A stretch of DNA of 64,000 bases from Parcubacteria group bacterium (GCA_035438705.1 DAORIV010000003.1:4699-68698), one strand, 5' to 3'. Numbered from the stretch's first letter, positions 13,364-58,385 are shown. The notes: generated by a model not told the origin, from the sequence alone. Made by a program: numbers and translations.

Positions 13364-13470
13364 AGTTCTGGCGCCTAGCTACTCTCCCACATAGTAGTAC
13401 CATCGCCTCAACAGAGCTTAACTGCCGTGTTCGGAATGAGAACGGGTGTGACCTCTGCGATAAAGCACCA
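13364..13470 (-). rRNA. rrf: 5S ribosomal RNA
   Basis: The reverse complement reads ...CCCGTTCTCATTCCGAACACGGCAGTTAAGCTCTGTTGAGGCGATGGTACTACTATGTGGGAGAGTAGCTAGGCGCCAGAAC, which are canonical 5S motifs. Ends are approximate. Confidence 0.85.
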
Positions 13471-13506
13471 AAACTAAATTTTCAAAGTAAAACTTCATGG
13501 CTTCAT

Positions 13507-13526: not shown

Positions 13527-13833
13527 AGTGATTGTTAAATTTCCTAATAGAAATCGGCTAATTAGTACACCTCGGCTACACATATTGCTATGCTTCCACC
13601 TAGTGCCTATCACGTGATCATCTCTCACGGGCCTCAAACGATTCCTAATCTTGAAGTTGGTTTCACTCTTAGATGCTTTCAGAGTTTATCCATTCCCGAC
13701 TTAGCTACTCTGCGGTGCCCTTGGCAGGACAGCAGACACACCAGAGGTCAGTTCACCCCGGTCCTCTCGTACTAGGGGCAAATCTTCTCAAGAATCAACG
13801 CCCACAGTAGATAGGAGACCAACCTGTCTCACG

Positions 13834-14409
13834 CATGTTTCCACAAATTACTTTGTGCATTGGACTATAACTTCATGTACCGAAAGGCACACTGTTGATG
13901 TTTAGTCTCTACGGGCGTTTATGAATTTCATCAAGAATGCGATACAAAATCGCAAATGTTTTGTTGCCACCCAAAAAAGGGTGGCGACCCTAACTGGATT
14001 CGAACCAGTGTCCTCGCTTTTCTTTTGGATGAGCAAGTGTCCTAGGCCTCTGGACGATAGGGTCCTAACAAAACGAAAGAACGACATTTCTCACTTGAGA
14101 AATGGCGGTAGTGAAAATGAGATCCCTGTACTAGCGGTCCTCGCTCTTCGAGCCAACGGCGTGCCAGTCTGGTCTATCTTCACTACCTCAACAATTCTTG
14201 ATGAAATTCACAAACTTCCCTCGGTATTATCCAAAACAAAAAATTAAATTGTTTGGACTCCACCGATATAAATCAACTTTAATCGCACGAATGCGACCGC
14301 CGTGATTTGATTGGTTCCTTATCTTTATTCATAAACGAAAATTCCTCTGAGGATTCAGATTGTGGAGAAATCCAGATTTTTTAGCAAGCTAAAAAGAAAT
14401 GAAATTCTC
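13834..14409 (-). other. Putative ORF-less self-splicing intron (group I-like), ~576 nt, inserted in 23S at the I-CreI/I-CeuI-type site (E. coli ~2593)
   Basis: The exon sequence CTGTCTCACG | ... | ACGGTCTGAACCCAGCTCGCGTAAG is contiguous in all uninterrupted 23S rRNAs (GGGTTTAGAACGTCGTGAGACAG). The insert has no sense-strand ORF longer than 61 aa. Confidence 0.6.
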
Positions 14410-15042
14410 CACGGTCTGAACCCAGCTCGCGTAAGATTTTAAATGGCGAACAGCCATACCCTTGGGAGCTTCTTCACCCCCAGGATATCTTGAGCCGACA
14501 TCGAGGTGCCGAACTGTGCCGTCGCTATGGACGCTTAGGCACAACCAGCCTGTTATCCCCAGGGTAGCTTTTATCCGATAATCTCCGGCCGCCTCTAAAA
14601 CGGACCGTCGGTTCACTATGTTCCACTTTCGTGTCTGTTTGACAAGTACGTCTTACAGTTAAGCCAGCTTATGCCATTACACTATCGGTATGGTTTCCAT
14701 TCACACCTAGCTGACCTTAATAAACTCCTCCGTTACTCTTTAGGAGGATAGCGCCCCACTAAAACTGCCCACCAGAAACTGTCTCTGTCCGTTTTTTCCG
14801 TACAGGTTAGAAAGTATATCAAACAAGATGGCTATTTCACTGACGACTCCAGGCTACCCGAAAGTGCCCTTCAAAGTCTCACCACTATGCTACGCATGCA
14901 AAACATACCCTCAATATCAAGTTGCAGTAAAGCTCCTGGGGTCTTTTCGTCTAACTGCGGGTAACCGGCATCTTCACCGGTATTGTATTTTCACCGAGCA
15001 AATCCCCGAGACAGTTCTCCAGTCATTATACCATTCGTGCAC

Positions 15043-15390
<348 letters not shown>

Positions 15391-16802
15391 CAGGGCTTAT
15401 ATAATCAACCTAAAATCTTGCGACTCTCGGCTACCATATTTGACCTTCTGGCATTGGTCAGGCATCACCCCCTATACATCCTCTTACGAGTTCGCAGGGA
15501 GCTGTGTTTTTGATAAACAGTTGCCAGAGATACTTTAGCTGCGGCCCACCGAAGTGGGCAAGCCTTATTCCGAAGTTACGGCTGCTTTTTTGCCGAGTTC
15601 CTTGGGGATCTCTCACTCGTTCGCCTTGGTCTACTCGACCTGACTACCTGTGTCGGTTTACGGTACGGATCTTATGTGATTAAGCTTAGAAATTTTTCTT
15701 GAAAGCGTGCTTTGTATAATCCCCTAGACTTACGCCCGGGTTTAAATACTGCTTGGTATTATCATTTAAGAAAGTGTGCGGATTTACCTACACAGCTACC
15801 TCACAGTACATACTCAAATCCAATAATGAGCTATACATACTACCCTCCGTCCTTCCATCGCATCACACAAAAGTGCAGGAATATTAACCTGCTGTCCATC
15901 GGCTGCGACTCTCGTCATTGCCTTAGGCCCGACTAACCCTGCTCTGATTGACATTGAACAGGAAACCTCAGTCTTTCGGCGCTGGGGGTTCTCGCCCCAG
16001 TTGTGGTTACTTGTGCCAACATTCTTACTTCGCAACGCTCCAGCGTGGGTCACCCCTTCGCCTTCACAGCAGATACGAATACTCTCCTACCGCTTGTCTT
16101 TTCCGAAGAAAAAACAAACCCTCAGTTTCGGTACATAACTTAGCCCCGATTATTTGCGGCGCGGAATCTCTTACTGAGTGAGCTGTTACGCTATCTTTCA
16201 AGGGTGGCTGCTTCTAAGCCTACCTCCTCAGTGTCTACGAAATTCCACCACCTTAAGCGCACTTAGTTATGATTTAGGGACCTTAAATAGAGATCTAGGC
16301 TGTTTCCTTTTTGACGTACGGAGCTTAGCCCCCGCCGTCTAACTGCCGTATAGTTAATCTTCCGTATTCGGAGTTTGATAGGTCTCACGAGATTGCTCCC
16401 TGTTGAGACCTTCCAGTGCTCTACCCCGGAAGGGTAAATACGACGCTAGCCCAAAAGCTATTTCGGAGAGAACCAGCTATTACCAGGCTCGATTAGCTTT
16501 TCACTTCTTACCACAAGTCATCCCAATGTATTGCACGGCAAACGGGTTCGGGCCTCCATCTATCTTTCGATAAACTTCACCCTGCTCATGGCAAGCTCGC
16601 TCTGGCTTCGGGTCTAATGCACACGATATATTCGCGCTATTCACACTCGGTTTCCCTGAGACTCCATCCGACAAAGGACTTAGTCAAACCGCGTACATTA
16701 ACTCGTTGGCTCATTCTTCAATAGGCACGCCGTGACGGATATAAATACCCGCTCCGACTCCTTGTAAGCATATGGTTTCAGATCTATTTCACTCCCCTTA
16801 TA

Positions 16803-16845
<43 letters not shown>

Positions 16846-17430
16846 ATCTTTAAATGTATTTAGCCTTACCGGTTAGTACCGGCAGATTCCTCCGAGCTAT
16901 TCATGTCTCGAAGTACTCAAGAACAGAAACAAAGAAGATATTATTTTTTCGCTCACGGGACCATTACCCTCTAGGGTTGTGCTTTCCAGCACATTAAACT
17001 AAAATAATATTTTTTAACTTCTCTCACAATAAATTGTGACGTCTCTGCCTTACAACCCCACCCCGCCATCCTCATTTCCAATTTCTCAGAAACAAAGATA
17101 GAAGGGTGGTTTGGGCTTTTGCGTTTTCGCTCGCCGCTATTTACGCAATAACAATTGTTCTCTTTTCCTCCAGGTACTGAAATGTTTTACTTCCCTGGGT
17201 GCACGATCTAGATAAACTCTAGACCAACGACATGTAGTCGTTAGGTTTCCCCATTCAGAAATTTTCGGATTAACGGTTGCTAGGCACCTCCCCGAAACTT
17301 ATCGCAGCCATGCTACGTCTTTCATCGCCATTTAAAGTCAAGGCATCCACCATACGCTCTTAAATTTCCCATTAGGAAATTTAAAAACCACAAGTTACAA
17401 AAAACGACCACTCGCTTTTTATAACAATTA

Positions 17431-34638: not shown

Positions 34639-34712
34639 GCGCCTGTAGCTCAGTTGGTTAGAGCACAGAGCTTATACCTCTGGGGTCCCTGGTTCGAGTC
34701 CAGGCAGGCGCA
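34639..34712 (+). tRNA. tRNA-Ile with anticodon UAU (reads AUA)
   Basis: The sequence GCGCCTG-TA-GCTC-AGTTGGTTA-GAGC-A-CAGAG-CTTATAC-CTCTG-GGGTC-CCTGG-TTCGAGT-CCAGG-CAGGCGC-A folds into a full cloverleaf with a perfect 7-bp acceptor stem. The backbone closely resembles bacterial tRNA-Ile. CCA is not encoded. Confidence 0.75.
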
Positions 34713-34720
34713 CACGATTC

Positions 34721-46035: not shown

Positions 46036-47361
46036 TTATGAGTTAAGTTCTGCTTTCACAAAACTAATTAGATCTAAAACTGACATTCTTTTTTGCTCTC
46101 CAGTATCTCTATCTCTTACAGTAACCCCTGCATCCTTTTCAATAGTTTCAAAATCAACAGTTACACACCAAGGAGTTCCTATTTCATCCTGTCTCCTGTA
46201 TCTCTTTCCAATATTTCCATTGTCATCAAACATAACCGCACCAAATTCTTTTTTAAGCTGTTTGAATACTTCTCTAGCTTTATCTACAAGCTCTGGTTTG
46301 TTTTTAAGTAGTGGAAACACTGCAATTTTAACTGGAGCTATTTTAGGTTTGAATGATAAATAAACTCTTGTATCTTCTCCATTTTCCTCCTCTCTATATG
46401 CATCACACAATACAGCAAGTATAGTTCTATCTAATCCCAGTGATGGTTCAATTACGTGAGGAGTATATCGTTCCTTATTTTCTTCATCAAAATAAGACAG
46501 ATCAACATTAGAACCAGCTGAGTGGCTTTTTAAATCAAAATCAGTTCTATATGCCAAGCCATATAACTCTTTTCTGCCGAATGGATAATCGAACTCAAAA
46601 TCTATTGTTCTCTTAGAATAGTGTGCTAAATCTGATTCAGAAACTTCAAGTTCGTGTACATGATTCATATCCAATCCTATTTCATTACACCAATTAAGCA
46701 TTGTTTTTCTCCATTCTCCAAAAGCACTCTCCCATTCAGTTGGCTTAACAAAATATTCAACTTCCATTTGTCTAAACTCTCTCGATCTAAAAACAAAATC
46801 TCTCGGAGCAATTTCATTCCGAAATGCCTTACCAATTTGTGCCATACCGAAAGGAATTTTTGGGTGTATTGAGTCTTGAATATTTTTATAATTTACAAAC
46901 ATACCCCCAGCAGTTTCTGGACGAAGATAAGTTACTGAAGACTCATCTTCTGAAGCTCCGATGTTAGTTTTAAACATCATATTAAATTGTTTTGGACTAC
47001 TTAATTTTCCACCACAATCAGGGCACTTATTTTTATCTTCTAATTGATCTTCTCTGAATCGATGTCCGCACTTTTCACAAATTACTAATGGATCGGAGAA
47101 ACCTGAAACATGACCTGATGCTTCCCATACTTTTGGGTTCATTATTATTGCAGCATCAACTCCATACATATCTTCTCTATCAGATACAAACATCTTCCAC
47201 CACAGATTTTTCAAGTTATTAGATAACTCTGCTCCATAAGGACCGTAATCCCAAGTACCTGCAAGTCCCCCATAGATTTCAGAGCCTTGAAAAACAAAAC
47301 CTCTTCTTTTACAAAGAGACACTATTTTCTCCATTAAGTTGTCATTTTTTGAACTTTCCAT
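46036..47361 (-). CDS. glyQS: Glycyl-tRNA synthetase, dimeric class II type
   Basis: It has class II motifs (FRNEIAPRDFVFRSREFRQMEVEYF) and an anticodon-binding C-terminus. Confidence 0.9.
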   Translation of the reverse strand: MESSKNDNLMEKIVSLCKRRGFVFQGSEIYGGLAGTWDYGPYGAELSNNLKNLWWKMFVSDREDMYGVDAAIIMNPKVWEASGHVSGFSDPLVICEKCGHRFREDQLEDKNKCPDCGGKLSSPKQFNMMFKTNIGASEDESSVTYLRPETAGGMFVNYKNIQDSIHPKIPFGMAQIGKAFRNEIAPRDFVFRSREFRQMEVEYFVKPTEWESAFGEWRKTMLNWCNEIGLDMNHVHELEVSESDLAHYSKRTIDFEFDYPFGRKELYGLAYRTDFDLKSHSAGSNVDLSYFDEENKERYTPHVIEPSLGLDRTILAVLCDAYREEENGEDTRVYLSFKPKIAPVKIAVFPLLKNKPELVDKAREVFKQLKKEFGAVMFDDNGNIGKRYRRQDEIGTPWCVTVDFETIEKDAGVTVRDRDTGEQKRMSVLDLISFVKAELNS

Positions 47362-49921: not shown

Positions 49922-52900
49922 TTATCTCAGAATAGAGAAAGTGGTCTCTCCACCAATATCTGGAACGTTATACTTCTGTTTTTCTTCTGTATAAGAAATA
50001 TCATTAACTCCAGTTGGAGATTTAATCATTTCCAGGTGTTTATATATAATTCCCTGCTTGTCTGTACAAAAAACAATGTTTACTACATCACTAGGATTTA
50101 ATTTTTCTGTTTTCCTTGCATCTTGAATAGCTCGAATAATATCTCTAGCAACACCTTCTTCTATAAGTTCTGGGGTTAAGTTGGTATCAAGTTTCACCTC
50201 ATCACCAACCACTACCTCTTTTACATTAACCTCATCAGCTATGATACTTAGTAACTCCTCTGAAAAACTTTCCTTTATTATAAGTGTGTTTAATGGCTGT
50301 CTTACCTTGTGGCCAGACTTTTGTCTAAGCTCCAAAGCCAAAGTAACATTCTCTCTAACCTTACTCATACTATCTATCAAAGAAGAATCAGTATCTCCGC
50401 CATTTGGCCAGAAGTCTAAATGCACACTTTCTTTTGATTCTGGATTCTTCATTTTTTGGTACACTTCTTCCGCAAAGAAAGGTGTAAATGGTGCCATATA
50501 TTTTGAAAGTTCGATTAGTACAAAGGCTGTTGTTGCCAGTGCTTCATTTCTTTCTTCAGCATTCTCAGATTTAAATCTATCTCTTGAGCGTCTTACATAC
50601 CAAGTAGAAAAATCGTTTACAAAATCCCTTATTGGCCTAGCAGATTCAAAAACTTGAAACTTCTCTAATGTTTTTGTTCCACCCTCAACCAACTCGTTTA
50701 GTCGTGACAAAATCCATTTATCCAAAACATTTTGACTTTTGTTATGTGGTAGTGTTTTGTCATCTTTGTACAACTCATAGAATGCAACAATGTTTAGAAG
50801 TGGGTTGAAAACTTTTTTAACTATTTCATCGACAGTTTTCTCATCAAAGTTTTTTGAATCCCCTGGCTGGTTAACCATATACATCCAAAGTCGTAGTGCA
50901 TCTACTCCGTATTTATTCATAAGCTCCCAAGGATCAAGAATGTTTCCAACAGACTTAGACATTTTCTTTCCGTCTTTATCTAGAATATGCCCAAGACAAA
51001 TTACATTCTTAAATGCCCTACCCTTACCCATAAGTATTCCTATTGCATGTAATGTATAGAACCATCCACGAGTCTGATCTATTGCTTCAGAAATAAAGTC
51101 TGCTGGGTATGCAAGCTCATTTTTATTCCAAGGGAAATGATCTTGTGCAAAAGGCATCGAGCCAGAGTCAAACCAAACGTCCATAACTTCCCTAACCCTT
51201 TTAAGTGAGCTTCCTTTTTCATCAACAAGCTCAACACCATCTATATATGGCTTATGCAGATCAACTTCATATTCTGAATTGTGTGGTAGTGGAATAAAAG
51301 AAATTTCGTGAACTTCTGCATTTCTTATAAACTCTTCTTTATCCTTTCCAAATAATGACGTTTCTACTCTGTTGTATCCTCTACTTGCAGATTCCAAAGC
51401 CCAAGCTGTGTGTTCGTGGGTCACAAAAAGTATCACTTCATTTGTATTTGTTTTATCTACATCATACAAAAGGTTTCCTGTTCTATTTTTAACATCAGAC
51501 AAATTTTCACCCTGCTCAGGCCTAATATCAAAAATATCCTCATCAGTTTTTATTAACTTATGATACTCATCTACCGACTGTCCTGACATAACCCCCAAGT
51601 CATGTTCTCCAAGTCTATCATCGAAAGTGAGTTTATCCTCTGTTAGCCCAAGTACTTCTCTTATTATTTCTGCAGTTTCTGTAGTGCGCACAAAAGGAGA
51701 AGAGATTATTTTTGTAATACCTTTTTCTTTCAAAACTTTTGCCGACTCTTCTACTTGTTTCCTGCCTTTTTCAGTAAGGTGAAAATTGTCTTCTTTTTTA
51801 CAACTCAAAATATTTGCAACATTATGTTCACCTTCACCGTGTCGAACTAGGAAATATTTATTTCCATTAGTTTTTATATATTTCTTTAAATCATCCAAAC
51901 CTCCTATTACTTTTATATTTCCTTCAGAATCTTGCCAAACTGGGAGTGGAGTTCCCCAATATCTCTCCCGAGAAATAGCCCAATCTTTTATTTCTCGAAG
52001 CCACTCTCCAAAACGTCCTTCTTTTATGTGTGAAGGTTCCCAGACTATGTTTTCATTCTCTTTCACAAGTTCTTCACGAAGTTTTGACATAGCGATATAC
52101 CATGAATCCCTTGCATAATAGATAAGTGGAGTTTTACATCTCCAGCAGTGTGGATATGAGTGCTCGTATTTTTCTTTCTTAAATAGCAATCCTCTGTGAG
52201 CCAAATCTTTTATTATATCTACTGCGACTTCTTCATCTTTAACAAATCTGTTAGACAAAAAATCCATACCATCTAGAAAATTCCCATCATCTTTAACTAA
52301 GTGAAACTTAGGGAGACCGATTTGTGTTCCCAAAATAAAATCATCTTGTCCGTACATTACTGCTGTATGAACAATTCCTGTTCCATCGGTTGTGGTTACA
52401 AAATCTGCAGAGTAAACCTTATACGCTTTTGCAAACGATTCTTTGTCTTTCTCCTCAAACTTCTGCACGAGGAATGGATACAGTGGTTCATACTCCATTC
52501 CAACCATTTCACTACCCTTATGTTCGGCAATAATCTCATATTCACCCTGTATCACTGAAAGTCTTTCTTTTGCTAAAACTAAAATCTCGCTGCCATTTTC
52601 TGTAGCGATTTTTACTTCTACATATACCACATCCTTTCCAACAGCAAGACCTACATTTCCTGGAAGTGTCCAAGGTGTAGTTGTCCACGCAAGAAAATAT
52701 CCATTTTCAGTTCCTCTTATTTTAAACTTTGCAGTTACAGAAAGATCTTTATCATCTTGATAACCTTGTGCTAGTTCATGTGATGACAATGCTGTTCCAC
52801 AACGTGGACACCAAGGTAGGACTTTGTAGTCTTTATATAACAACCCTCTATCATTTACAGTTTTTACAATATTCCAAACAGACTCTATATAGCTTGTATC

Positions 52901-53350
52901 GAAAGTATAATATGCATCTTTTTTATCAACCCAGTAACCTATTCTATCTGTAAATTTTTCCCAGTCGCCAATGTATTCAAACACACTGTCTTTACACTGC
53001 TTATTAAACTCTTCTACTCCATATTGTTCTATTTCTTTTTTAGATTTAAGACCAAGTTTTTTCTCAATCTGGAGCTCAACAGGAAGTCCATGTGTATCCC
53101 AACCTGCCTTTCTTCTCACGTTAAAACCTTGCATCGTTTTGAAACGAGGAATGATGTCTTTAAAAACCCTAGACTCTAAGTGGTGTAGAGCTGGTTTAGC
53201 ATTTGCAGTTGGAGGACCTTCATAGAAAACAAACTTACCTTTTGGAGCATCTTTTTCCAATGTTTTTTTAAACACTTCTTTTTCTTGCCAGAATTTTAAA
53301 ACTTCTTCTTCTTTGAGTGCTGTTTGTGATTTTTGTGTTTCTGGATTCAT
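49922..53350 (-). CDS. ileS: Isoleucyl-tRNA synthetase carrying an inserted histidine-phosphatase (phosphoglycerate-mutase-like) domain
   Basis: The IleRS core is recognisable: a HIGH-region, the CP1 editing domain (WTTTPWTLP), WGTPLPVW, DVWFDSGS and KMSKS. Between WGTPLPVW and DVWFDSGS lie ~240 extra residues with all four histidine-phosphatase motifs: LVRHGEGEHN, SSPFVRTTETA, DDRLGEHDLG and FVTHEHT. The total length is 1142 aa. Confidence 0.85.
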   Translation of the reverse strand: MNPETQKSQTALKEEEVLKFWQEKEVFKKTLEKDAPKGKFVFYEGPPTANAKPALHHLESRVFKDIIPRFKTMQGFNVRRKAGWDTHGLPVELQIEKKLGLKSKKEIEQYGVEEFNKQCKDSVFEYIGDWEKFTDRIGYWVDKKDAYYTFDTSYIESVWNIVKTVNDRGLLYKDYKVLPWCPRCGTALSSHELAQGYQDDKDLSVTAKFKIRGTENGYFLAWTTTPWTLPGNVGLAVGKDVVYVEVKIATENGSEILVLAKERLSVIQGEYEIIAEHKGSEMVGMEYEPLYPFLVQKFEEKDKESFAKAYKVYSADFVTTTDGTGIVHTAVMYGQDDFILGTQIGLPKFHLVKDDGNFLDGMDFLSNRFVKDEEVAVDIIKDLAHRGLLFKKEKYEHSYPHCWRCKTPLIYYARDSWYIAMSKLREELVKENENIVWEPSHIKEGRFGEWLREIKDWAISRERYWGTPLPVWQDSEGNIKVIGGLDDLKKYIKTNGNKYFLVRHGEGEHNVANILSCKKEDNFHLTEKGRKQVEESAKVLKEKGITKIISSPFVRTTETAEIIREVLGLTEDKLTFDDRLGEHDLGVMSGQSVDEYHKLIKTDEDIFDIRPEQGENLSDVKNRTGNLLYDVDKTNTNEVILFVTHEHTAWALESASRGYNRVETSLFGKDKEEFIRNAEVHEISFIPLPHNSEYEVDLHKPYIDGVELVDEKGSSLKRVREVMDVWFDSGSMPFAQDHFPWNKNELAYPADFISEAIDQTRGWFYTLHAIGILMGKGRAFKNVICLGHILDKDGKKMSKSVGNILDPWELMNKYGVDALRLWMYMVNQPGDSKNFDEKTVDEIVKKVFNPLLNIVAFYELYKDDKTLPHNKSQNVLDKWILSRLNELVEGGTKTLEKFQVFESARPIRDFVNDFSTWYVRRSRDRFKSENAEERNEALATTAFVLIELSKYMAPFTPFFAEEVYQKMKNPESKESVHLDFWPNGGDTDSSLIDSMSKVRENVTLALELRQKSGHKVRQPLNTLIIKESFSEELLSIIADEVNVKEVVVGDEVKLDTNLTPELIEEGVARDIIRAIQDARKTEKLNPSDVVNIVFCTDKQGIIYKHLEMIKSPTGVNDISYTEEKQKYNVPDIGGETTFSILR

Positions 53351-53599: not shown

Positions 53600-55276
53600 T
53601 TACATTTTTTCTGGAACTTTGATGCCAAGTAAATGTAGCCCCCCTATCATCCAATGCAAGAAAGTCCTTGTAATTGCCAAACGATATGGTGAAGTAACAT
53701 CATTTTCATCTATTATTTTTCCACTTGCATAGAAACTATTAAACTCTGCTGCAAGTTCTGTGAGGTAAGTGGTTATATAATGAGGAGCAAACTCTTTTCC
53801 AGATCTCTCTACCACATCAAAAAACCTATCCAACATTCTTTCTAGATTAGTAGTTTGCCAACCTTCTGGCTTATCTCCAGAAATCTCTACAATATCTTCA
53901 GCCTTTTTTAATATTGAATTCGCTCTAACAGCTGAATACTGAAGATATGGACCCGAATCACCATCAAATGAAATAGACTTATCAAAATCAAAAATAATAT
54001 CACCTCCTATTGCCTGTCGCAGTATAGTGTATTTTATAGCCCCAAGCCCTATTGTTTCAGCGATTACACCCCTTTCACTTTCTGGAATATCACCGTCTTT
54101 CATTTTTTCTAAAACTTTTTCAGTAACTTGATTAATCAAAGCAGTGGCTGTAATAACATTTCCTGTTCTTGAAGACATCTTTCCTTCTGGAAGCTTGAGC
54201 ATGCCATGAGAAATATGTTTTGTTTTTATAGCGAGTTCTGGGAAAACTAGCGACATAGCTTTAAGAAGAACTTTGAAATACTCATTTATCTCATTGCCAG
54301 TAATCACTATTGAAGTGTCATATTGATATGTATCGTATTTCAGTTTTGCCAAGCCAAGTTCTTTTGCTTCATATGTAGGCAAACCTTCTTTGTTTACAAA
54401 AACTCTAGTATGAAGTTTCTTGTCGTGATTTTCCCCTTTGAAAACAACAGCCCCGTCACTTTCTTCAAAAACTTCACCTACATTTTTCAAAACAGTCTCC
54501 TTTCCAAAATCTGCTACTTCACTTTCGAAAAAGTAGTGATCAAACTTAGTACCCAGAATTTTATACATTACTTCAAAATAAAGAAGTGATTTCTGTCTAC
54601 CAGTTTCATACAACTCATTTATTTCTTCATCCGAATGGTCGTATATCTTTTTATTTATTTCTATAATTTCTATTTTTGCCTCCTCATCTTCCTCGTATGC
54701 TTTATGTCCCTCAGCATATGCCTGCATCAAGTCTGTACCTTTTTTCATAGCCCAAACAGCTTTGGCGACATGAAGACCAACATCTCCTTGATAGTTTGCC
54801 CTTTGTATTTCAGCACCATTTTTCTCAAGTATTCGTGAAATAGATTCACCAATAACATTTGGCATAAGGTGTCCAATATGAAACTCCTTGAATGGATTAG
54901 GATCTGTATACTCTATAATTATTTTTTGACCAGAAAATATTAAATTTTCAGTTTTTCCATTTTTAAGTTCTTGCAATCTTTTTGCATAATAGTCTGGTGT
55001 TAAAAAGAAATTTAAAAACCCTGGTTTAGCCACTTCAATTTTTAAAATATTCTCCAGTTCTTTTGCTCTTATTTTGTCCTTACTTTCTAATTCTTTTTTG
55101 ATTTCTTCTGCTAAATCAACTGGATTTTTCCCTAATTCTTTTGCATGAACCATAGCAACTGAAGTAGTATAATCCCCTTTATCCAAATACACCGAAGAAA
55201 CAACGGACACATTCAAATCCTTTGCTCCAAGATCAATTAATATTTTTTCTATTTCTTTTTGTAATATTTCTTTCAT
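53600..55276 (-). CDS. argS: Arginyl-tRNA synthetase
   Basis: A class I HIGH-type motif (EFHIGHLM) and the characteristic ArgRS C-terminal DALR-like anticodon-binding domain. Confidence 0.85.
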   Translation of the reverse strand: MKEILQKEIEKILIDLGAKDLNVSVVSSVYLDKGDYTTSVAMVHAKELGKNPVDLAEEIKKELESKDKIRAKELENILKIEVAKPGFLNFFLTPDYYAKRLQELKNGKTENLIFSGQKIIIEYTDPNPFKEFHIGHLMPNVIGESISRILEKNGAEIQRANYQGDVGLHVAKAVWAMKKGTDLMQAYAEGHKAYEEDEEAKIEIIEINKKIYDHSDEEINELYETGRQKSLLYFEVMYKILGTKFDHYFFESEVADFGKETVLKNVGEVFEESDGAVVFKGENHDKKLHTRVFVNKEGLPTYEAKELGLAKLKYDTYQYDTSIVITGNEINEYFKVLLKAMSLVFPELAIKTKHISHGMLKLPEGKMSSRTGNVITATALINQVTEKVLEKMKDGDIPESERGVIAETIGLGAIKYTILRQAIGGDIIFDFDKSISFDGDSGPYLQYSAVRANSILKKAEDIVEISGDKPEGWQTTNLERMLDRFFDVVERSGKEFAPHYITTYLTELAAEFNSFYASGKIIDENDVTSPYRLAITRTFLHWMIGGLHLLGIKVPEKM

Positions 55277-55608
55277 TATCTATTGTCTCCAATACCCTTA
55301 ATAACTCCTCTTTTGTTTCTAGATGCTAATTTTTCAATATTTGCCTTAGCTATATCATCAAAATTATAACCTAAATCTTTTGCTAAAACTGATAAATACC
55401 ACAATACATCACCTAGTTCAAACTTCAAAGCTTCCTTCCTCTCTTTTGTCATCTTTTCAGTTCCATCATCACCCCTAAGCCATTTCTTAATTTTACCTAT
55501 AACTTCCCCAGTCTCATCAGCCAATCCTAATGCAGGATAAACCACCTTATATTGTTTTGGATATTTTGCTGTTTTTAAAGCATTTTTCTGATATTCATTG
55601 AATTGCAT
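55276..55608 (-). CDS. MazG-like nucleoside triphosphate pyrophosphohydrolase
   Basis: YQKNALKTA...GLADETGEV...ELGDVLWYL matches the all-alpha NTP-PPase (MazG) motifs. The likely start is the internal Met MQFNEYQ. Confidence 0.65.
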   Translation of the reverse strand: MQFNEYQKNALKTAKYPKQYKVVYPALGLADETGEVIGKIKKWLRGDDGTEKMTKERKEALKFELGDVLWYLSVLAKDLGYNFDDIAKANIEKLASRNKRGVIKGIGDNR

Positions 55609-55681
55609 ATGCAAATAATAACATTGACCTCTTTGTTTATAAAGCGAAGCGCGGTGGTAATCATACCACCGCGCAAAAGAG

Positions 55682-56284
55682 TTAGTTATCAAGAGCATGG
55701 CCAAGTGCCACCAATGCTACTGAAATCATTCTCTCTTCAGGAACATCGGCATCAACCTGAATAGAAACAATTCCTTCTCTCGAAAAGAACTTATCGTAGA
55801 AAACACGAGTCATTCGTCTGTCTTCTTCACTTCTACGATCAAAATGGTTTTCACCTCCACGTGCTTTTAATCTACGAGTTGCTTCTGCTGGTGAAACCTT
55901 GAAATCAAGATAGATACAAGGAACACCTCTAAGACAGACTTCTCTTGTGTGCCAGAAAAGTTCCTCGAGGTCTGGGTTTTTCCCGATTTGATATGCATAA
56001 GTTGAAGCATCAAATCTATCTGAGATAACTACTTGACCCGCAGTAATTGCTGGTCGAATAATTTTCGCTACATTCTCTGCGCGAGAGGCCCAGAAAAGAT
56101 TGAACATAGTCAGAGGATCTGCTTGTTCTGCATCGTCTGACAAAACCAGCTCTCTAACTTTCTGACTCAACCCCAAACCACCAGGTTCACGAGAAAAAAT
56201 AAAGTCAGGTCTTGCTGACTTAAGATGGTTTATGAAGGTAGTTTTACCACAACCATCCAATCCTTCAAGGAATACTGCTTTCAT
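55682..56284 (-). CDS. tmk: Thymidylate kinase
   Basis: It has the P-loop LEGLDGCGKTT, a DR motif and a lid region. GC is about 43%, clearly above host level. A strong SD (GGAGG) precedes it. Confidence 0.85.
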   Translation of the reverse strand: MKAVFLEGLDGCGKTTFINHLKSARPDFIFSREPGGLGLSQKVRELVLSDDAEQADPLTMFNLFWASRAENVAKIIRPAITAGQVVISDRFDASTYAYQIGKNPDLEELFWHTREVCLRGVPCIYLDFKVSPAEATRRLKARGGENHFDRRSEEDRRMTRVFYDKFFSREGIVSIQVDADVPEERMISVALVALGHALDN

Positions 56285-56413
56285 ACGAAACCTCCAGTAA
56301 AAAGAATATCACTTAGTAAATAAATTGTAAGATTGACCTACACCTAGATAAAAGGTAGAAATATACCAGAACTTTGTGTGGATTCCTCCACCAAAAACAA
56401 GGAGCTCTTTTAC

Positions 56414-57235
56414 ATGAGTAATGTAGACATTAAGATTTTCAACATCGCAAGAACTGAAGTTGATCGAGAAGAAGTTCGAAGGTGGCTCGACCATGTTGGA
56501 GCAAATGGATACGAAATCCCAGATGAAGCAACTGCTTCGAGTCCAGCCCTCCTCATCGCTCTGGCAGCCAAGCGCTGCTATATGAGCTTTGAGCCTGGTC
56601 TCAATCCCAATGTGACAAAAGTCCGAAGGGATATGGTCGCGTACTTCGACAACATCCTGTTGTCGCGACATGGATCAGTCCTCGAACACGCAGTTTACTC
56701 GTTTGCAATCGAAGGGATCAGCCGAGTTTTCACTGCTGAGATGAACCGCCATCGAGCTGGCTGGGCAATCTCGGAAGGAAGTCTCCGCTACATTCGTTTC
56801 GACAAGGATATCCCTTGGTGGTTGCCGACATCACTGCAACCCAATGAAAAAGACGACCCGGATCTCGCTCTGAGAAAAGCGAGGTCGGTTGAAATCTTCC
56901 GTCGTGCATTTGGTCACCAGGAAGAATGTTACGCTGAACTCTTGCAAGTCTGGGACATGGATGCCAGTCACCACAACTTCCACTACAAAAAAGTTGTGAC
57001 TTCATGCCTGCGAAGAATTGTGGGGCTTGGTGTTGCAACAGGAGGTGTTTGGACTGGAAACATGCGTGCACTCAGACACGTCATTGCCATGCGTGCAACT
57101 GAAGCAGCAGAAGAAGAGATCTTCTATGTGTTCGACCAGATCGCAAGGATGATGGTTGCAAAAGAACCTCTCATCTTTAACGACTTCAAGACCGACGAAA
57201 ACGGTTTCTGGACTCCCGAACACTGGAAGGTGTAA
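56414..57235 (+). CDS. thyX: FAD-dependent thymidylate synthase ThyX
   Basis: It carries the ThyX signature RHRAGWAISEGSLRY (RHR..S..S.RY). GC is about 50%. An SD (AAGGAG) lies upstream of the ATG at 56414; the ORF track starts 36 nt earlier. Confidence 0.75.
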   Translation: MSNVDIKIFNIARTEVDREEVRRWLDHVGANGYEIPDEATASSPALLIALAAKRCYMSFEPGLNPNVTKVRRDMVAYFDNILLSRHGSVLEHAVYSFAIEGISRVFTAEMNRHRAGWAISEGSLRYIRFDKDIPWWLPTSLQPNEKDDPDLALRKARSVEIFRRAFGHQEECYAELLQVWDMDASHHNFHYKKVVTSCLRRIVGLGVATGGVWTGNMRALRHVIAMRATEAAEEEIFYVFDQIARMMVAKEPLIFNDFKTDENGFWTPEHWKV

Positions 57236-57239
57236 CAAG

Positions 57240-57284
57240 AAAAACCCGCGTGCAGTCATTGACTGCTCGCGGGTTCGTTTTTTA
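57240..57284. terminator. GC-rich bidirectional terminator shared by the convergent thyX and dcd genes
   Basis: AAAAACCCGCGTGCAGTCATTGACTGCTCGCGGGTTCGTTTTTTATT: a long near-perfect hairpin with an A-tract before it and a T-tract after it. Confidence 0.5.
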
Positions 57285-58385
57285 TTCCCATTCCTTGAAT
57301 TGTTTACCGAGTTTTGGACCATTCTGACGTCCATACGTCGGAGACTTTTCATCGTAATGAGCATCCGGAACACCAAAGACTTTTTCATAGCGAACTTTTG
57401 CTATGGGCTGTCCATCTTGAATGATGATTCCGTTATCGAAAGAACGAACTTCCAAAGTCAGGGTGCGACCAAAAGTGCTAACCTGTTGAGTTACTCCCCA
57501 ACCCGGATCGATGAATCCTGCATAATGAGAACGCAAGTCCCCACTACGCTCGTCCATCGGCACCATCTCACAAGTGAGATGTGGTGGAACTACCACATGT
57601 TCCTTTGTTGAAAGGATGTAGAAAGTACCAGTATTAAGTGTGAGTGACCTGTTGAAAACAGTGATGGGCCTGAAGTAATACTTCGGATCATAGTGACTCC
57701 GAAGAGAAAGATCAATCGGATCCCCTCCCTCAATCGCTTCAAAACCAGGATTTTGAAATCCAAGTCCAAGCGAAAGAAGAATTGATCCGTCTCTATCTGA
57801 ATGTCTTTGATCTTCGTATTTGGCTTGTTCTCCGTCACAATCAAAGATCAAACCATTGAAGTTCATTCGCAAATCCCATTCATCAAAACGGGTATCTGCT
57901 GTGAAAAACCTGATTTGATTCAAAGACAAACCCGGAGAAACAATCACTGGAAAAGTCTTAGGAACCACAAGAATCCAGAGGTTTCCAGAGTACGCCTGCT
58001 CTACTGCATCGTAACGAGAACAGCTATCCACAAGCAAACGCACATGCATATCGACCCGACCACTTGAAGACTTCGGATTACAATATGCATACACACCTTC
58101 AGGCAACTTTGAAACGGCCTCATTTAGTGGCAGAACATAACAGCAACCTCTTTCAAGGAGAATCTTTTCTCCTGTTAGTTTGGTACTCCCAACACGTCTC
58201 AATGCACTGAAAACTGATTCACCAATTGCAGGAAGAAAAGCTCCCCGTACACGAAACACTTCACCTGTTACGGTGAGATCCAAGGAGCTAGGCCGAACAC
58301 TGTCGATGTTTGTTACACCACTCAAGAATCCACTATTAATCAGATACTGAATCTTGTGATCAGGTAATGCTCCACCTTGTCTCAT
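57282..58385 (-). CDS. dcd: dCTP deaminase-like protein, long (~360 aa) form of the Dcd/dUTPase beta-clamshell family
   Basis: Its N-terminus aligns with E. coli Dcd (HKIQYLINSGFLSGVTNIDSVRPSSLDLTV versus RDIEAWLDEGRLSINP..VDVRL) and it has the FIDPGWG motif. GC is about 45-50%. Confidence 0.6.
   Translation of the reverse strand: MRQGGALPDHKIQYLINSGFLSGVTNIDSVRPSSLDLTVTGEVFRVRGAFLPAIGESVFSALRRVGSTKLTGEKILLERGCCYVLPLNEAVSKLPEGVYAYCNPKSSSGRVDMHVRLLVDSCSRYDAVEQAYSGNLWILVVPKTFPVIVSPGLSLNQIRFFTADTRFDEWDLRMNFNGLIFDCDGEQAKYEDQRHSDRDGSILLSLGLGFQNPGFEAIEGGDPIDLSLRSHYDPKYYFRPITVFNRSLTLNTGTFYILSTKEHVVVPPHLTCEMVPMDERSGDLRSHYAGFIDPGWGVTQQVSTFGRTLTLEVRSFDNGIIIQDGQPIAKVRYEKVFGVPDAHYDEKSPTYGRQNGPKLGKQFKEWE

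Follow-up and report, generated by a model that had tools for sequence, protein, structure and literature searches.

The 64,000-nucleotide stretch of DNA analysed here (GCA_035438705.1, DAORIV010000003.1:4699-68698), referred to below as the window and numbered from its first letter, comes from a Parcubacteria group bacterium and carries an ileS gene on its minus strand at 49922..53350, with a TAA stop codon at 49922-49924. The gene encodes a 1142-residue type-2 isoleucyl-tRNA synthetase (IleRS) within which a branch-1 histidine phosphatase domain is nested, occupying residues 493-691 (51278..51874, minus strand) according to boundaries drawn from the alignment with the solved T. thermophilus IleRS structure 1ile. 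An earlier reading of this DNA, hereafter the original prediction, had described the ileS open reading frame (ORF) as continuous over 1142 residues; the ORF indeed runs across 49922..53350 without any internal stop codon or frameshift, so two separate genes have not been merged. Both parts of the protein belong to well-known families, but their nested combination is apparently undescribed and functionally unexplained.

The host protein looks like a working type-2 IleRS that would be capable of aminoacylation, with an ALHH signature, a KMSKS motif, an intact editing site in connective polypeptide 1 (CP1) and a type-2 C-terminus. The insert notwithstanding, it scores 867.8 bits against the NCBIfam ileS equivalog model TIGR00392 (cutoff 621.4). 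The runner-up NCBIfam models are those of MupA and MupB, the mupirocin-resistant type-2 enzymes, and overall the query best matches IleRS2, MupA and MupB rather than IleRS1. Pfam recognizes two stretches of tRNA-synt_1, Anticodon_1 and DUF5915, plus His_Phos_1 between the synthetase stretches. DUF5915, the type-2 C-terminal domain, lies at residues 1052-1136, and the C-terminal zinc-binding domain that type-2 enzymes lack is absent. Among solved structures, P. megaterium IleRS2 (8c8w and its relatives) and T. thermophilus IleRS (1ile) come closest to the protein as a whole.

The N-terminal part of the synthetase (residues 1-492; 51875..53350, minus strand, as are all features of the gene) aligns with residues 11-459 of 8c8w and 13-478 of 1ile. 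It comprises the first Rossmann half, the CP core, the CP1 editing domain, CP2, the WGTPLPVW strand (51935-51958) and the first arm of CP3 (51875-51934, from the 1ile alignment). Within it lie the ALHH motif (residues 54-57; 53180-53191) and the CP-core cysteines CPRC (residues 181-184; 52799-52810) and CWRC (residues 402-405; 52136-52147). The C-terminal part (49925..51181) aligns with residues 480-983 of 8c8w and holds the Anticodon_1 and DUF5915 matches. It comprises the DVWFDSG strand (51161-51181), the second Rossmann half, the KMSKS motif (residues 796-800; 50951-50965), which is conserved in homologues, the anticodon-binding domain and the type-2 C-terminal domain.

At the position of the HIGH motif the query has ALHH, and many relatives have GIHH. 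According to Brkic et al. 2023 (PMC10485003), G/AXHH is a natural HIGH variant that is catalytically competent in type-2 IleRS and raises mupirocin resistance up to 1000-fold, and D. radiodurans IleRS2 carries exactly ALHH. In 119 full-length homologues with 58-100% identity to the query, the editing motifs GTGIVHTAVMYGQDD and GTGIVHTAVMYGQDDF are conserved, and the WTTTPWT motif is present as AWTTTPWTL in 118 of them. Two solved editing-domain fragments, 1wk8 and 1wny, also match the CP1 editing domain. In the full-length AlphaFold model the mean predicted local distance difference test (pLDDT) score is 89 and the predicted template modelling (pTM) score 0.82, and the IleRS body superposes on IleRS2 structures with Foldseek target TM-scores of 0.82-0.91. 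Compared with the type-2 enzymes 1ile, 8c8w and D. radiodurans IleRS2, the query thus has the same body domain order and fold at 33-36% identity, together with the common DUF5915 C-terminus, KMSKS and CP1 editing motifs and, as in D. radiodurans IleRS2, ALHH. It differs from them in adding an enzyme domain of about 199 residues at the CP3 tip, without the T. thermophilus CP3 cysteines.

The insert had been predicted to sit between the WGTPLPVW and DVWFDSG segments, and the 1ile alignment places it there. The predicted extent was too wide: residues ~475-715 had been taken as non-IleRS sequence, of which residues 493-691 are foreign, but about 20 residues on each side are native CP3 arms. In the focused alignment, query residues 455-490 pair with T. 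thermophilus residues 443-478, and the alignment resumes from query residue 696 (VDLHKPYIDGVELVDEKGSSLKRV...DVWFDSG) at T. thermophilus residue 488. The arms are residues 473-492 and 692-723 of the query (the second being SEYEVDLHKPYIDGVELVDEKGSSLKRVREVM; 51182..51277), matching 461-478 and 488-511 of 1ile, and against 8c8w, residues 474-690 of the query fall opposite residues 459-480 of the chain. A foreign segment of about 199 residues hence replaces the nine-residue CP3 tip of T. thermophilus IleRS. In the latter enzyme the arms carry C461 and C464, then C502 and C504, with the nine residues between the arms. All four CP3 cysteine positions are occupied by other residues in the query (D and K at the counterparts of Cys502 and Cys504), and the CPRC and CWRC cysteines of the CP core are retained.

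According to PMC7191050, the CP3 subdomain spans residues 473-534 of C. albicans IleRS, and our alignments put the insert site at about C. albicans residues 497-505, within CP3. The same paper describes CP3 as a peripheral subdomain whose topology and zinc content vary among IleRSs. These properties fit a plastic hairpin that is permissive for insertion. The linkers joining guest and host are short and conserved, with K-x-x-G-N497 on the N-terminal side and P-L-P-H-N691 on the C-terminal side. N497 is invariant and P-H-N is conserved at residues 689-691 in the 119 homologues, and N497 is also present in 100% of 70 species-representative sequences. In the full-length model, the mean pLDDT of 10-residue blocks is 78-96 over residues 491-690 and 94-95 at both junctions.

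The GC content over the insert is 0.32-0.37, the same as in its flanks, and the base composition is uniform. A recent horizontal insertion was rejected, as GC content and skew are unbroken across the insert. An intein or intron was likewise rejected, since Pfam shows no intein family in the protein and Rfam gives no match inside the gene, and also because the whole insert, modelled as 196 residues, folds as one histidine-phosphatase domain.

As judged from sequence and model, the insert is a branch-1 histidine phosphatase, not a phosphoglycerate mutase, and resembles the short-form small-molecule phosphatases. The domain had been predicted at 51281-51862, which corresponds to residues 497-690, and a hidden Markov model (HMM) search supports it strongly, with His_Phos_1 (PF00300) matching residues 500-653 at 100.4 bits (gathering cutoff 21.7; E 1.3e-28). 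The insert aligns over its full length with the solved phosphatases PspA (4ij5) and PhoE (1h2e), including the RH pair, the second Arg, the Glu and the second His; the four histidine phosphatase motifs proposed earlier are all present and aligned with the catalytic residues of these enzymes (R503-H504-G505, R555, E582 and H645). H504, in the RHG motif (51836..51844), aligns with the His of the RH pair in PspA and PhoE and is the predicted phospho-accepting nucleophile. N510 (51821..51823) is the Asn of RHGxxxxN. The segment S551-P-F-V-R555 (51686..51700) supplies a conserved Ser and the second phosphate-pocket Arg. E582 (51605..51607), the predicted general acid/base, is aligned to the region of the catalytic Glu in PspA and PhoE, and H645 (51416..51418) is the second His of the catalytic core.

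These residues are held fixed in a segment that otherwise changes quickly. R503, H504, G505, N510, S551, R555 and H645 are invariant among the 119 homologues, where E582 is conserved at 99%. Among the 70 species-representative sequences, N497, R503, H504, S551, R555, E615 and H645 are 100% conserved, N510 is kept in 68, position 505 is G in 69 and A in one, and position 582 is E in 68 and D in two. The R, H, S, R, E and H positions are also invariant in an alignment of 22 inserts with 29-68% identity to the query insert, which includes copies from valyl-tRNA synthetase (ValRS) and from unusual sites. At the same time, the insert and the C-terminal domain are the least conserved parts of the protein, the mean majority-residue frequency being 0.54 in the insert versus 0.80 in residues 1-474. 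Fixed catalytic residues within a fast-evolving insert are what selection for enzyme activity would be expected to leave, and the guest phosphatase appears to be catalytically intact and is apparently active.

Structure prediction agrees with the sequence assignment. The domain modelled alone folds confidently (pLDDT 95, pTM 0.92) into a histidine-phosphatase fold, and Foldseek searches with this predicted structure returned many solved superfamily members at a probability of 1.00 and TM-scores of 0.75-0.80. Its best structural neighbours are PspA, a mycobacterial hydrolase, Rv2419c, PhoE, a riboflavin-pathway histidine-family phosphatase (HFP) and Rv3214, at a TM-score of ~0.79 and a root-mean-square deviation of 2.5-3.0 Å, with cofactor-dependent mutases ranking lower. 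The short-form branch-1 phosphatases PspA (a phosphoserine phosphatase; 4ij5), PhoE/YhfR (1h2e), Rv2419c (a glucosyl-3-phosphoglycerate phosphatase; 4qih) and HFP (9mmh) share the fold, the catalytic residues and a similar length (~190-210 residues) with the insert. They differ from it in sequence (22-29% identity in structural alignments) and in being free-standing rather than nested, and the cap region of the insert is unconserved.

No characterised NCBIfam family cutoff is reached by the insert, the best match being NF038349 (82.5 versus 225 bits). The characterised short-form phosphatase models fall far short, with 52.1 versus 350 bits for PspA (NF045917), 62.2 versus 162.9 for CobC (TIGR03162) and 44.7 versus 277 for the PhoE-like model PRK13463. 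A substrate is therefore not transferable by homology, because the insert lies below every characterised NCBIfam equivalog cutoff. The insert is acidic, with an isoelectric point (pI) of 5.3 and a net charge of -11 (family mean -6.8).

The architecture is real and is retained across a wide range of Parcubacteria/Paceibacteria. The identical protein is deposited at NCBI as HRH26781.1 (class I tRNA ligase family protein, Parcubacteria group bacterium) and belongs to a 10-member cluster on 10 contigs drawn from NCBI, JGI and Logan. The five places displayed for it represent five separate samples (NCBI, two JGI samples and two Logan runs), and the same downstream neighbours are found in at least four of the five. 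The junctions are genuine, being reproduced in these independent assemblies. Among the best full-length database matches (58-100% identity), 120 of 120 carry PF00300 inside IleRS; most are 1107-1185 residues long, with one truncated entry of 811 residues, and the named taxa are Parcubacteria, Zambryskibacteria, Pacebacteria, Minisyncoccia and Patescibacteria. In public databases this architecture appears only under unspecific labels, for instance "class I tRNA ligase family protein".

The original prediction had called for a search for the same insertion in related genomes. A scan of one genome per species, run from a 7-sequence alignment, found at least 272 stretches encoding a relative, of which the best 80 loci were examined. 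These include Nomurabacteria, Vogelbacteria, Yonathbacteria, Tagabacteria, Paceibacterota and the RAAC4_OD1_1 genome, and all but one are named Patescibacteria or unclassified. The phosphatase domain lies in one frame at the same site in 78 of these 80 species-representative loci. A pattern search located it in one ORF between WGxPxPxW and DxWxxSG, 247-295 residues apart, in 69 loci, and nine further loci align with the query in a single frame across the insert by tblastn, one of them (L066) on a 1.7-kb contig limited to residues 393-958. The other two loci, L019 and L046, show a frame change within the ileS-phosphatase gene, which in L046 is located near residue 697, at the insert's C-terminal junction. 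These could be assembly errors or genuinely split genes.

The cysteines of CP3 give the order of events. Distant fusion proteins, 36-48% identical over the insert region, retain the CxxC...CxC pattern flanking the insert, and among 69 genomes 27 keep CxxC...CxC, 39 have none of the cysteines, like the query, and three are partial. The insertion is ancient, long maintained in many species, and older than the cysteine loss in the lineage of the query, because the distant fusions and these 27 genomes keep cysteines around the insert. In the simplest reading, the phosphatase would have entered the tip of an intact cysteine (zinc-motif) hairpin, and the cysteines would have been lost afterwards in several lineages, including that of the query.

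Related proteins extend this history to other sites and to another host. With the insert alone as query, exhaustive searching by HMMER gave 6964 cluster representatives at E<=1e-3, of which 597 reach E<=1e-10 and 20 reach E<=1e-30; a word-indexed protein search with the same query gave no match. The best 150 representatives, selected by similarity to the query insert, consist of 94 IleRS, three ValRS and 53 short proteins, with no host other than IleRS or ValRS among the 97 long ones. At least one of the short matches, P0263, is a fragment of a fusion, as it clusters with a 723-residue member. One to four phosphatase domains are found in related proteins, at other IleRS loops and in ValRS. In the IleRSs P0310 and P0323 the cysteine hairpin is intact and empty, and two phosphatase domains lie elsewhere, the first behind CWFESGSMPYA and the second where the anticodon-binding domain begins; P0310 occurs on six contigs, one of them 1.06 Mb long. 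In the ValRSs P0344 and P0241 one domain occupies the homologous site, WWGHxIPVW...DTWFSS, a further one follows PQWFI, and the total is as many as four copies. Every copy read among the multi-domain relatives keeps the RH(G/A) motif, and the domains at unusual sites are closer to other synthetase-embedded domains than to the short proteins. On these comparisons, the same domain subfamily has evidently spread to other IleRS surface loops and to ValRS, sometimes in tandem.

Further guest domains accompany the phosphatase in some relatives. P0343, on an 11.3-kb JGI contig, is an IleRS with three guests: an IS200-like Y1 transposase domain in the CP1 region, the phosphatase at the same CP3 tip with the cysteines intact, and a GNAT domain after WFESGSMPYA. 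As its sequence stops inside the GNAT domain or shortly behind it, the synthetase may be split there. In P0344, residues ~610-905, some 290 residues between the first phosphatase domain and the point at which ValRS resumes, have no Pfam match and may form a further uncharacterised guest domain.

Our preferred reading, to which we assign a probability of roughly 55%, is that the gene encodes a bifunctional nested enzyme in which the guest is an autonomous small-molecule phosphomonoesterase and the synthetase a constitutively expressed carrier. The guest would be an ordinary phosphomonoesterase of the PhoE/PspA/Rv2419c type that folds independently on the CP3 tip. In this scheme, H504 would attack the phosphate to form a phospho-histidine intermediate, with the phosphate held by R503, R555, H645 and N510, and E582 would act as the acid that protonates the leaving group. 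We infer that both activities are functional, that the substrate is, as a best guess, a small phosphorylated metabolite rather than tRNA, and that the synthetase serves as a scaffold, which would provide co-expression, stability and co-localisation without a precise catalytic geometry. Placement appears insensitive to geometry, because relatives carry the domain at several other IleRS and ValRS sites in one to four copies, and the domain is probably not an RNA binder, because it is acidic. Together with the peripheral position of CP3 and the unconserved cap, these features argue weakly against a role that depends on geometry relative to tRNA or the synthetic site. The substrates put forward in the original prediction, among them Ile-AMP analogues and phospho-tRNA ends, are therefore speculative candidates.

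Several observations weigh against this reading. The hosts among the best 150 representatives are only IleRS (94) and ValRS (3), unlike what a purely opportunistic scaffold would produce, and this exclusivity hints at a functional link with class Ia synthetases. The domains at unusual sites are most like other synthetase-embedded domains. The short conserved linkers and the confidently modelled junctions suggest a fixed rather than floppy orientation. In addition, the cap region, which sets specificity in the histidine phosphatase superfamily, is poorly conserved between E582 and E615 among the 119 homologues, so no substrate can be deduced from the insert.

These same observations bear on the possibility that the phosphatase is coupled to translation, where it would remove a phosphate that blocks the substrates of the synthetase, or the synthetase itself, as a built-in repair or immunity module. 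We regard such coupling as unlikely. Its targets could include a 2'/3'-phosphate or pyrophosphate that nucleases or toxins leave on the tRNA CCA end, a phosphorylated active-site nucleotide or a phospho-residue placed by a toxin kinase; toxins are known that phosphorylate synthetases (the HipA family) or pyrophosphorylate tRNA CCA ends (toxSAS). Coupling would account for the restriction to IleRS and ValRS hosts among the 97 long proteins, for the repeated placement in two paralogues in up to four copies with RH(G/A) kept in every copy read, for the likeness of the domains at unusual sites to other embedded ones, and for the conserved linkers and confident junctions. A variable cap over an invariant core would suit a substrate that is recognised mainly via its phosphate and presented by the host, and GNAT enzyme domains are likewise found inside these IleRSs. 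However, the acidity of the domain (net -11; family mean -6.8) is unfavourable for RNA binding, CP3 is peripheral, and the scattered sites, including the start of the anticodon-binding domain, leave no constant geometry to the active site or the CCA end. To our knowledge, no branch-1 histidine phosphatase acts on RNA ends. PADLOC defence-system models gave a single meaningless match of 17.9 bits, so that a link to defence systems was rejected, and phage genomes contain only distant generic homologues of ~30% identity, which also led us to reject a phage or mobile-element link. A more specific version seems to us more doubtful still, namely a dedicated translation-protection module that clears phosphate or pyrophosphate from the tRNA 3' end or the synthetase, the phosphates having been placed by nucleases or toxin kinases in conflicts of episymbiotic bacteria with their hosts or phages. 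If true, it would explain the IleRS/ValRS-only hosts, the use of several loops and the presence of up to four copies.

A mainly structural role, in which the insert replaces or braces the CP3 zinc knuckle and the phosphatase chemistry is irrelevant or lost, is very improbable. The insert does lie exactly at the cysteine-flanked (zinc-motif) hairpin of T. thermophilus CP3, as seen in the 1ile alignment and described in PMC7191050, and all four cysteines are gone in the query and in 39 of the 69 related genomes, as if the metal site were dispensable. But 27 of the 69 genomes retain the cysteine pairs alongside the insert, and the IleRSs of C. albicans and S. aureus lack the CP3 zinc motif, yet have no insert (PMC7191050). 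Moreover, catalytic residues for which there is no structural need are invariant at insert identities as low as 29-46%, and tandem copies and other insertion sites would be senseless for a brace.

We give equally little credence to the embedded domain being the organism's cofactor-dependent phosphoglycerate mutase (dPGM) hidden in IleRS. The original prediction had called the domain PGAM-like, a label that is not to be taken to mean phosphoglycerate mutase. Mutases and phosphatases have a common catalytic core, and among NCBIfam models the short archaeal-type dPGM one, NF038349, gives the insert its best score (82.5 bits, E 3.5e-23), but the dPGM cutoffs are all missed widely (82.5 versus 225 bits for NF038349, 42.3 versus 316 for PRK01295 and 56.3 versus 261 for PRK03482), and the structural neighbours place phosphatases above mutases. 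Among the dPGM residues that contact the substrate's second phosphate and carboxylate (Y92, K100, R116/R117 and N186 in E. coli/yeast numbering), Y92, K100 and N186 correspond in a by-eye alignment to L585, V593 and H647, and these are among the most variable columns of the insert (majority frequency 0.25-0.32 in the 119 homologues). Finally, a chimeric assembly or two genes merged by sequencing error is refuted: apart from the frame changes at two of the 80 loci (L019 and L046), which may be assembly errors there, the identical protein stands on 10 contigs, 78 of 80 species representatives and the 119 homologues are in one frame, and composition is unbroken across the insert.

Bacterial aminoacyl-tRNA synthetases are usually held to be architecturally frozen, and extra catalytic domains beyond editing are rare. 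A histidine phosphatase within an aminoacyl-tRNA synthetase is described nowhere in the full-text literature searched, which included papers on IleRS structure and evolution. The original prediction that the arrangement is without precedent stands for the literature searched, but the architecture is abundant in sequence databases, and IleRSs with an embedded GNAT domain are known. The latter are covered by NF040702 (isoleucine--tRNA ligase, N-acetyltransferase domain-containing), which sets a precedent for a second, unrelated enzyme domain in an IleRS of bacteria. There, the guest is a GNAT domain at a different position, whereas the query scores 317.6 against a cutoff of 1999 bits and has no Pfam acetyltransferase domain; the two kinds of guest meet in P0343, which holds both His_Phos_1 and GNAT.

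Other known systems resemble parts of this design. The CP1 editing domain of IleRS, ValRS and LeuRS is likewise hydrolytic and nested in a connective polypeptide, with both ends emerging from a hairpin; CP1 is universal and acts on mischarged tRNA, whereas the phosphatase insert is lineage-restricted and belongs to an unrelated superfamily. The INS element of IleRS2 is another nested domain in class Ia synthetases, as described in a preprint (bioRxiv 10.64898/2026.02.03.703510). The bifunctional RNase H/acid phosphatase of the Rv2228c type (NF005567) also combines a branch-1 phosphatase with a nucleic-acid enzyme, but it is an end-to-end fusion with a different partner rather than a nested insertion, and the insert scores 67 against its cutoff of 326.

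In the present case an essential synthetase houses, in its catalytic core region, a second and apparently active enzyme from an unrelated superfamily. Were both activities linked, phosphate chemistry would be coupled in a new way to tRNA charging or protection; if they are unlinked, a minimal-genome organism would be using an essential housekeeping protein as the carrier for a metabolic enzyme. As a permissive site for domain insertion, CP3 could be useful for synthetase engineering. There is also a consequence for annotation, as the phosphatase is invisible in metabolic reconstructions under the name "class I tRNA ligase family protein".

The ileS gene lies in a cluster of genes on the minus strand at 46036-47361, 49922-53350, 53600-55276 and 55276-58385. 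Three aminoacyl-tRNA synthetase genes are found on one strand within 10 kb: a class II synthetase with an HGTP anticodon-binding domain, ileS and argS. Genes of nucleotide metabolism adjoin the cluster, namely a MazG-like gene and tmk, with thyX and dcd in the matching NCBI contig. A gene for tRNA-Ile with anticodon UAU was located by ARAGORN at 34639-34713 on the plus strand, and this tRNA is likely a substrate of the IleRS described here. tRNA-Ile(UAU) is uncommon in bacteria, where AUA is usually decoded by a lysidine-modified CAU tRNA.

The window also contains a 23S rRNA gene at 13541-17376 on the minus strand, which measures 3836 nt versus 2925 nt for the model. Group I intron-like segments lie inside it at 15081-15321 (47.8 bits, cutoff 50) and 13841-13990 (32.3 bits), and a tRNA-like match with a 4-nt anticodon at 13982-14064 abuts the second of these. 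No 16S rRNA gene was found within the 64-kb window, and a 5S gene follows the 23S gene at 13366-13472.

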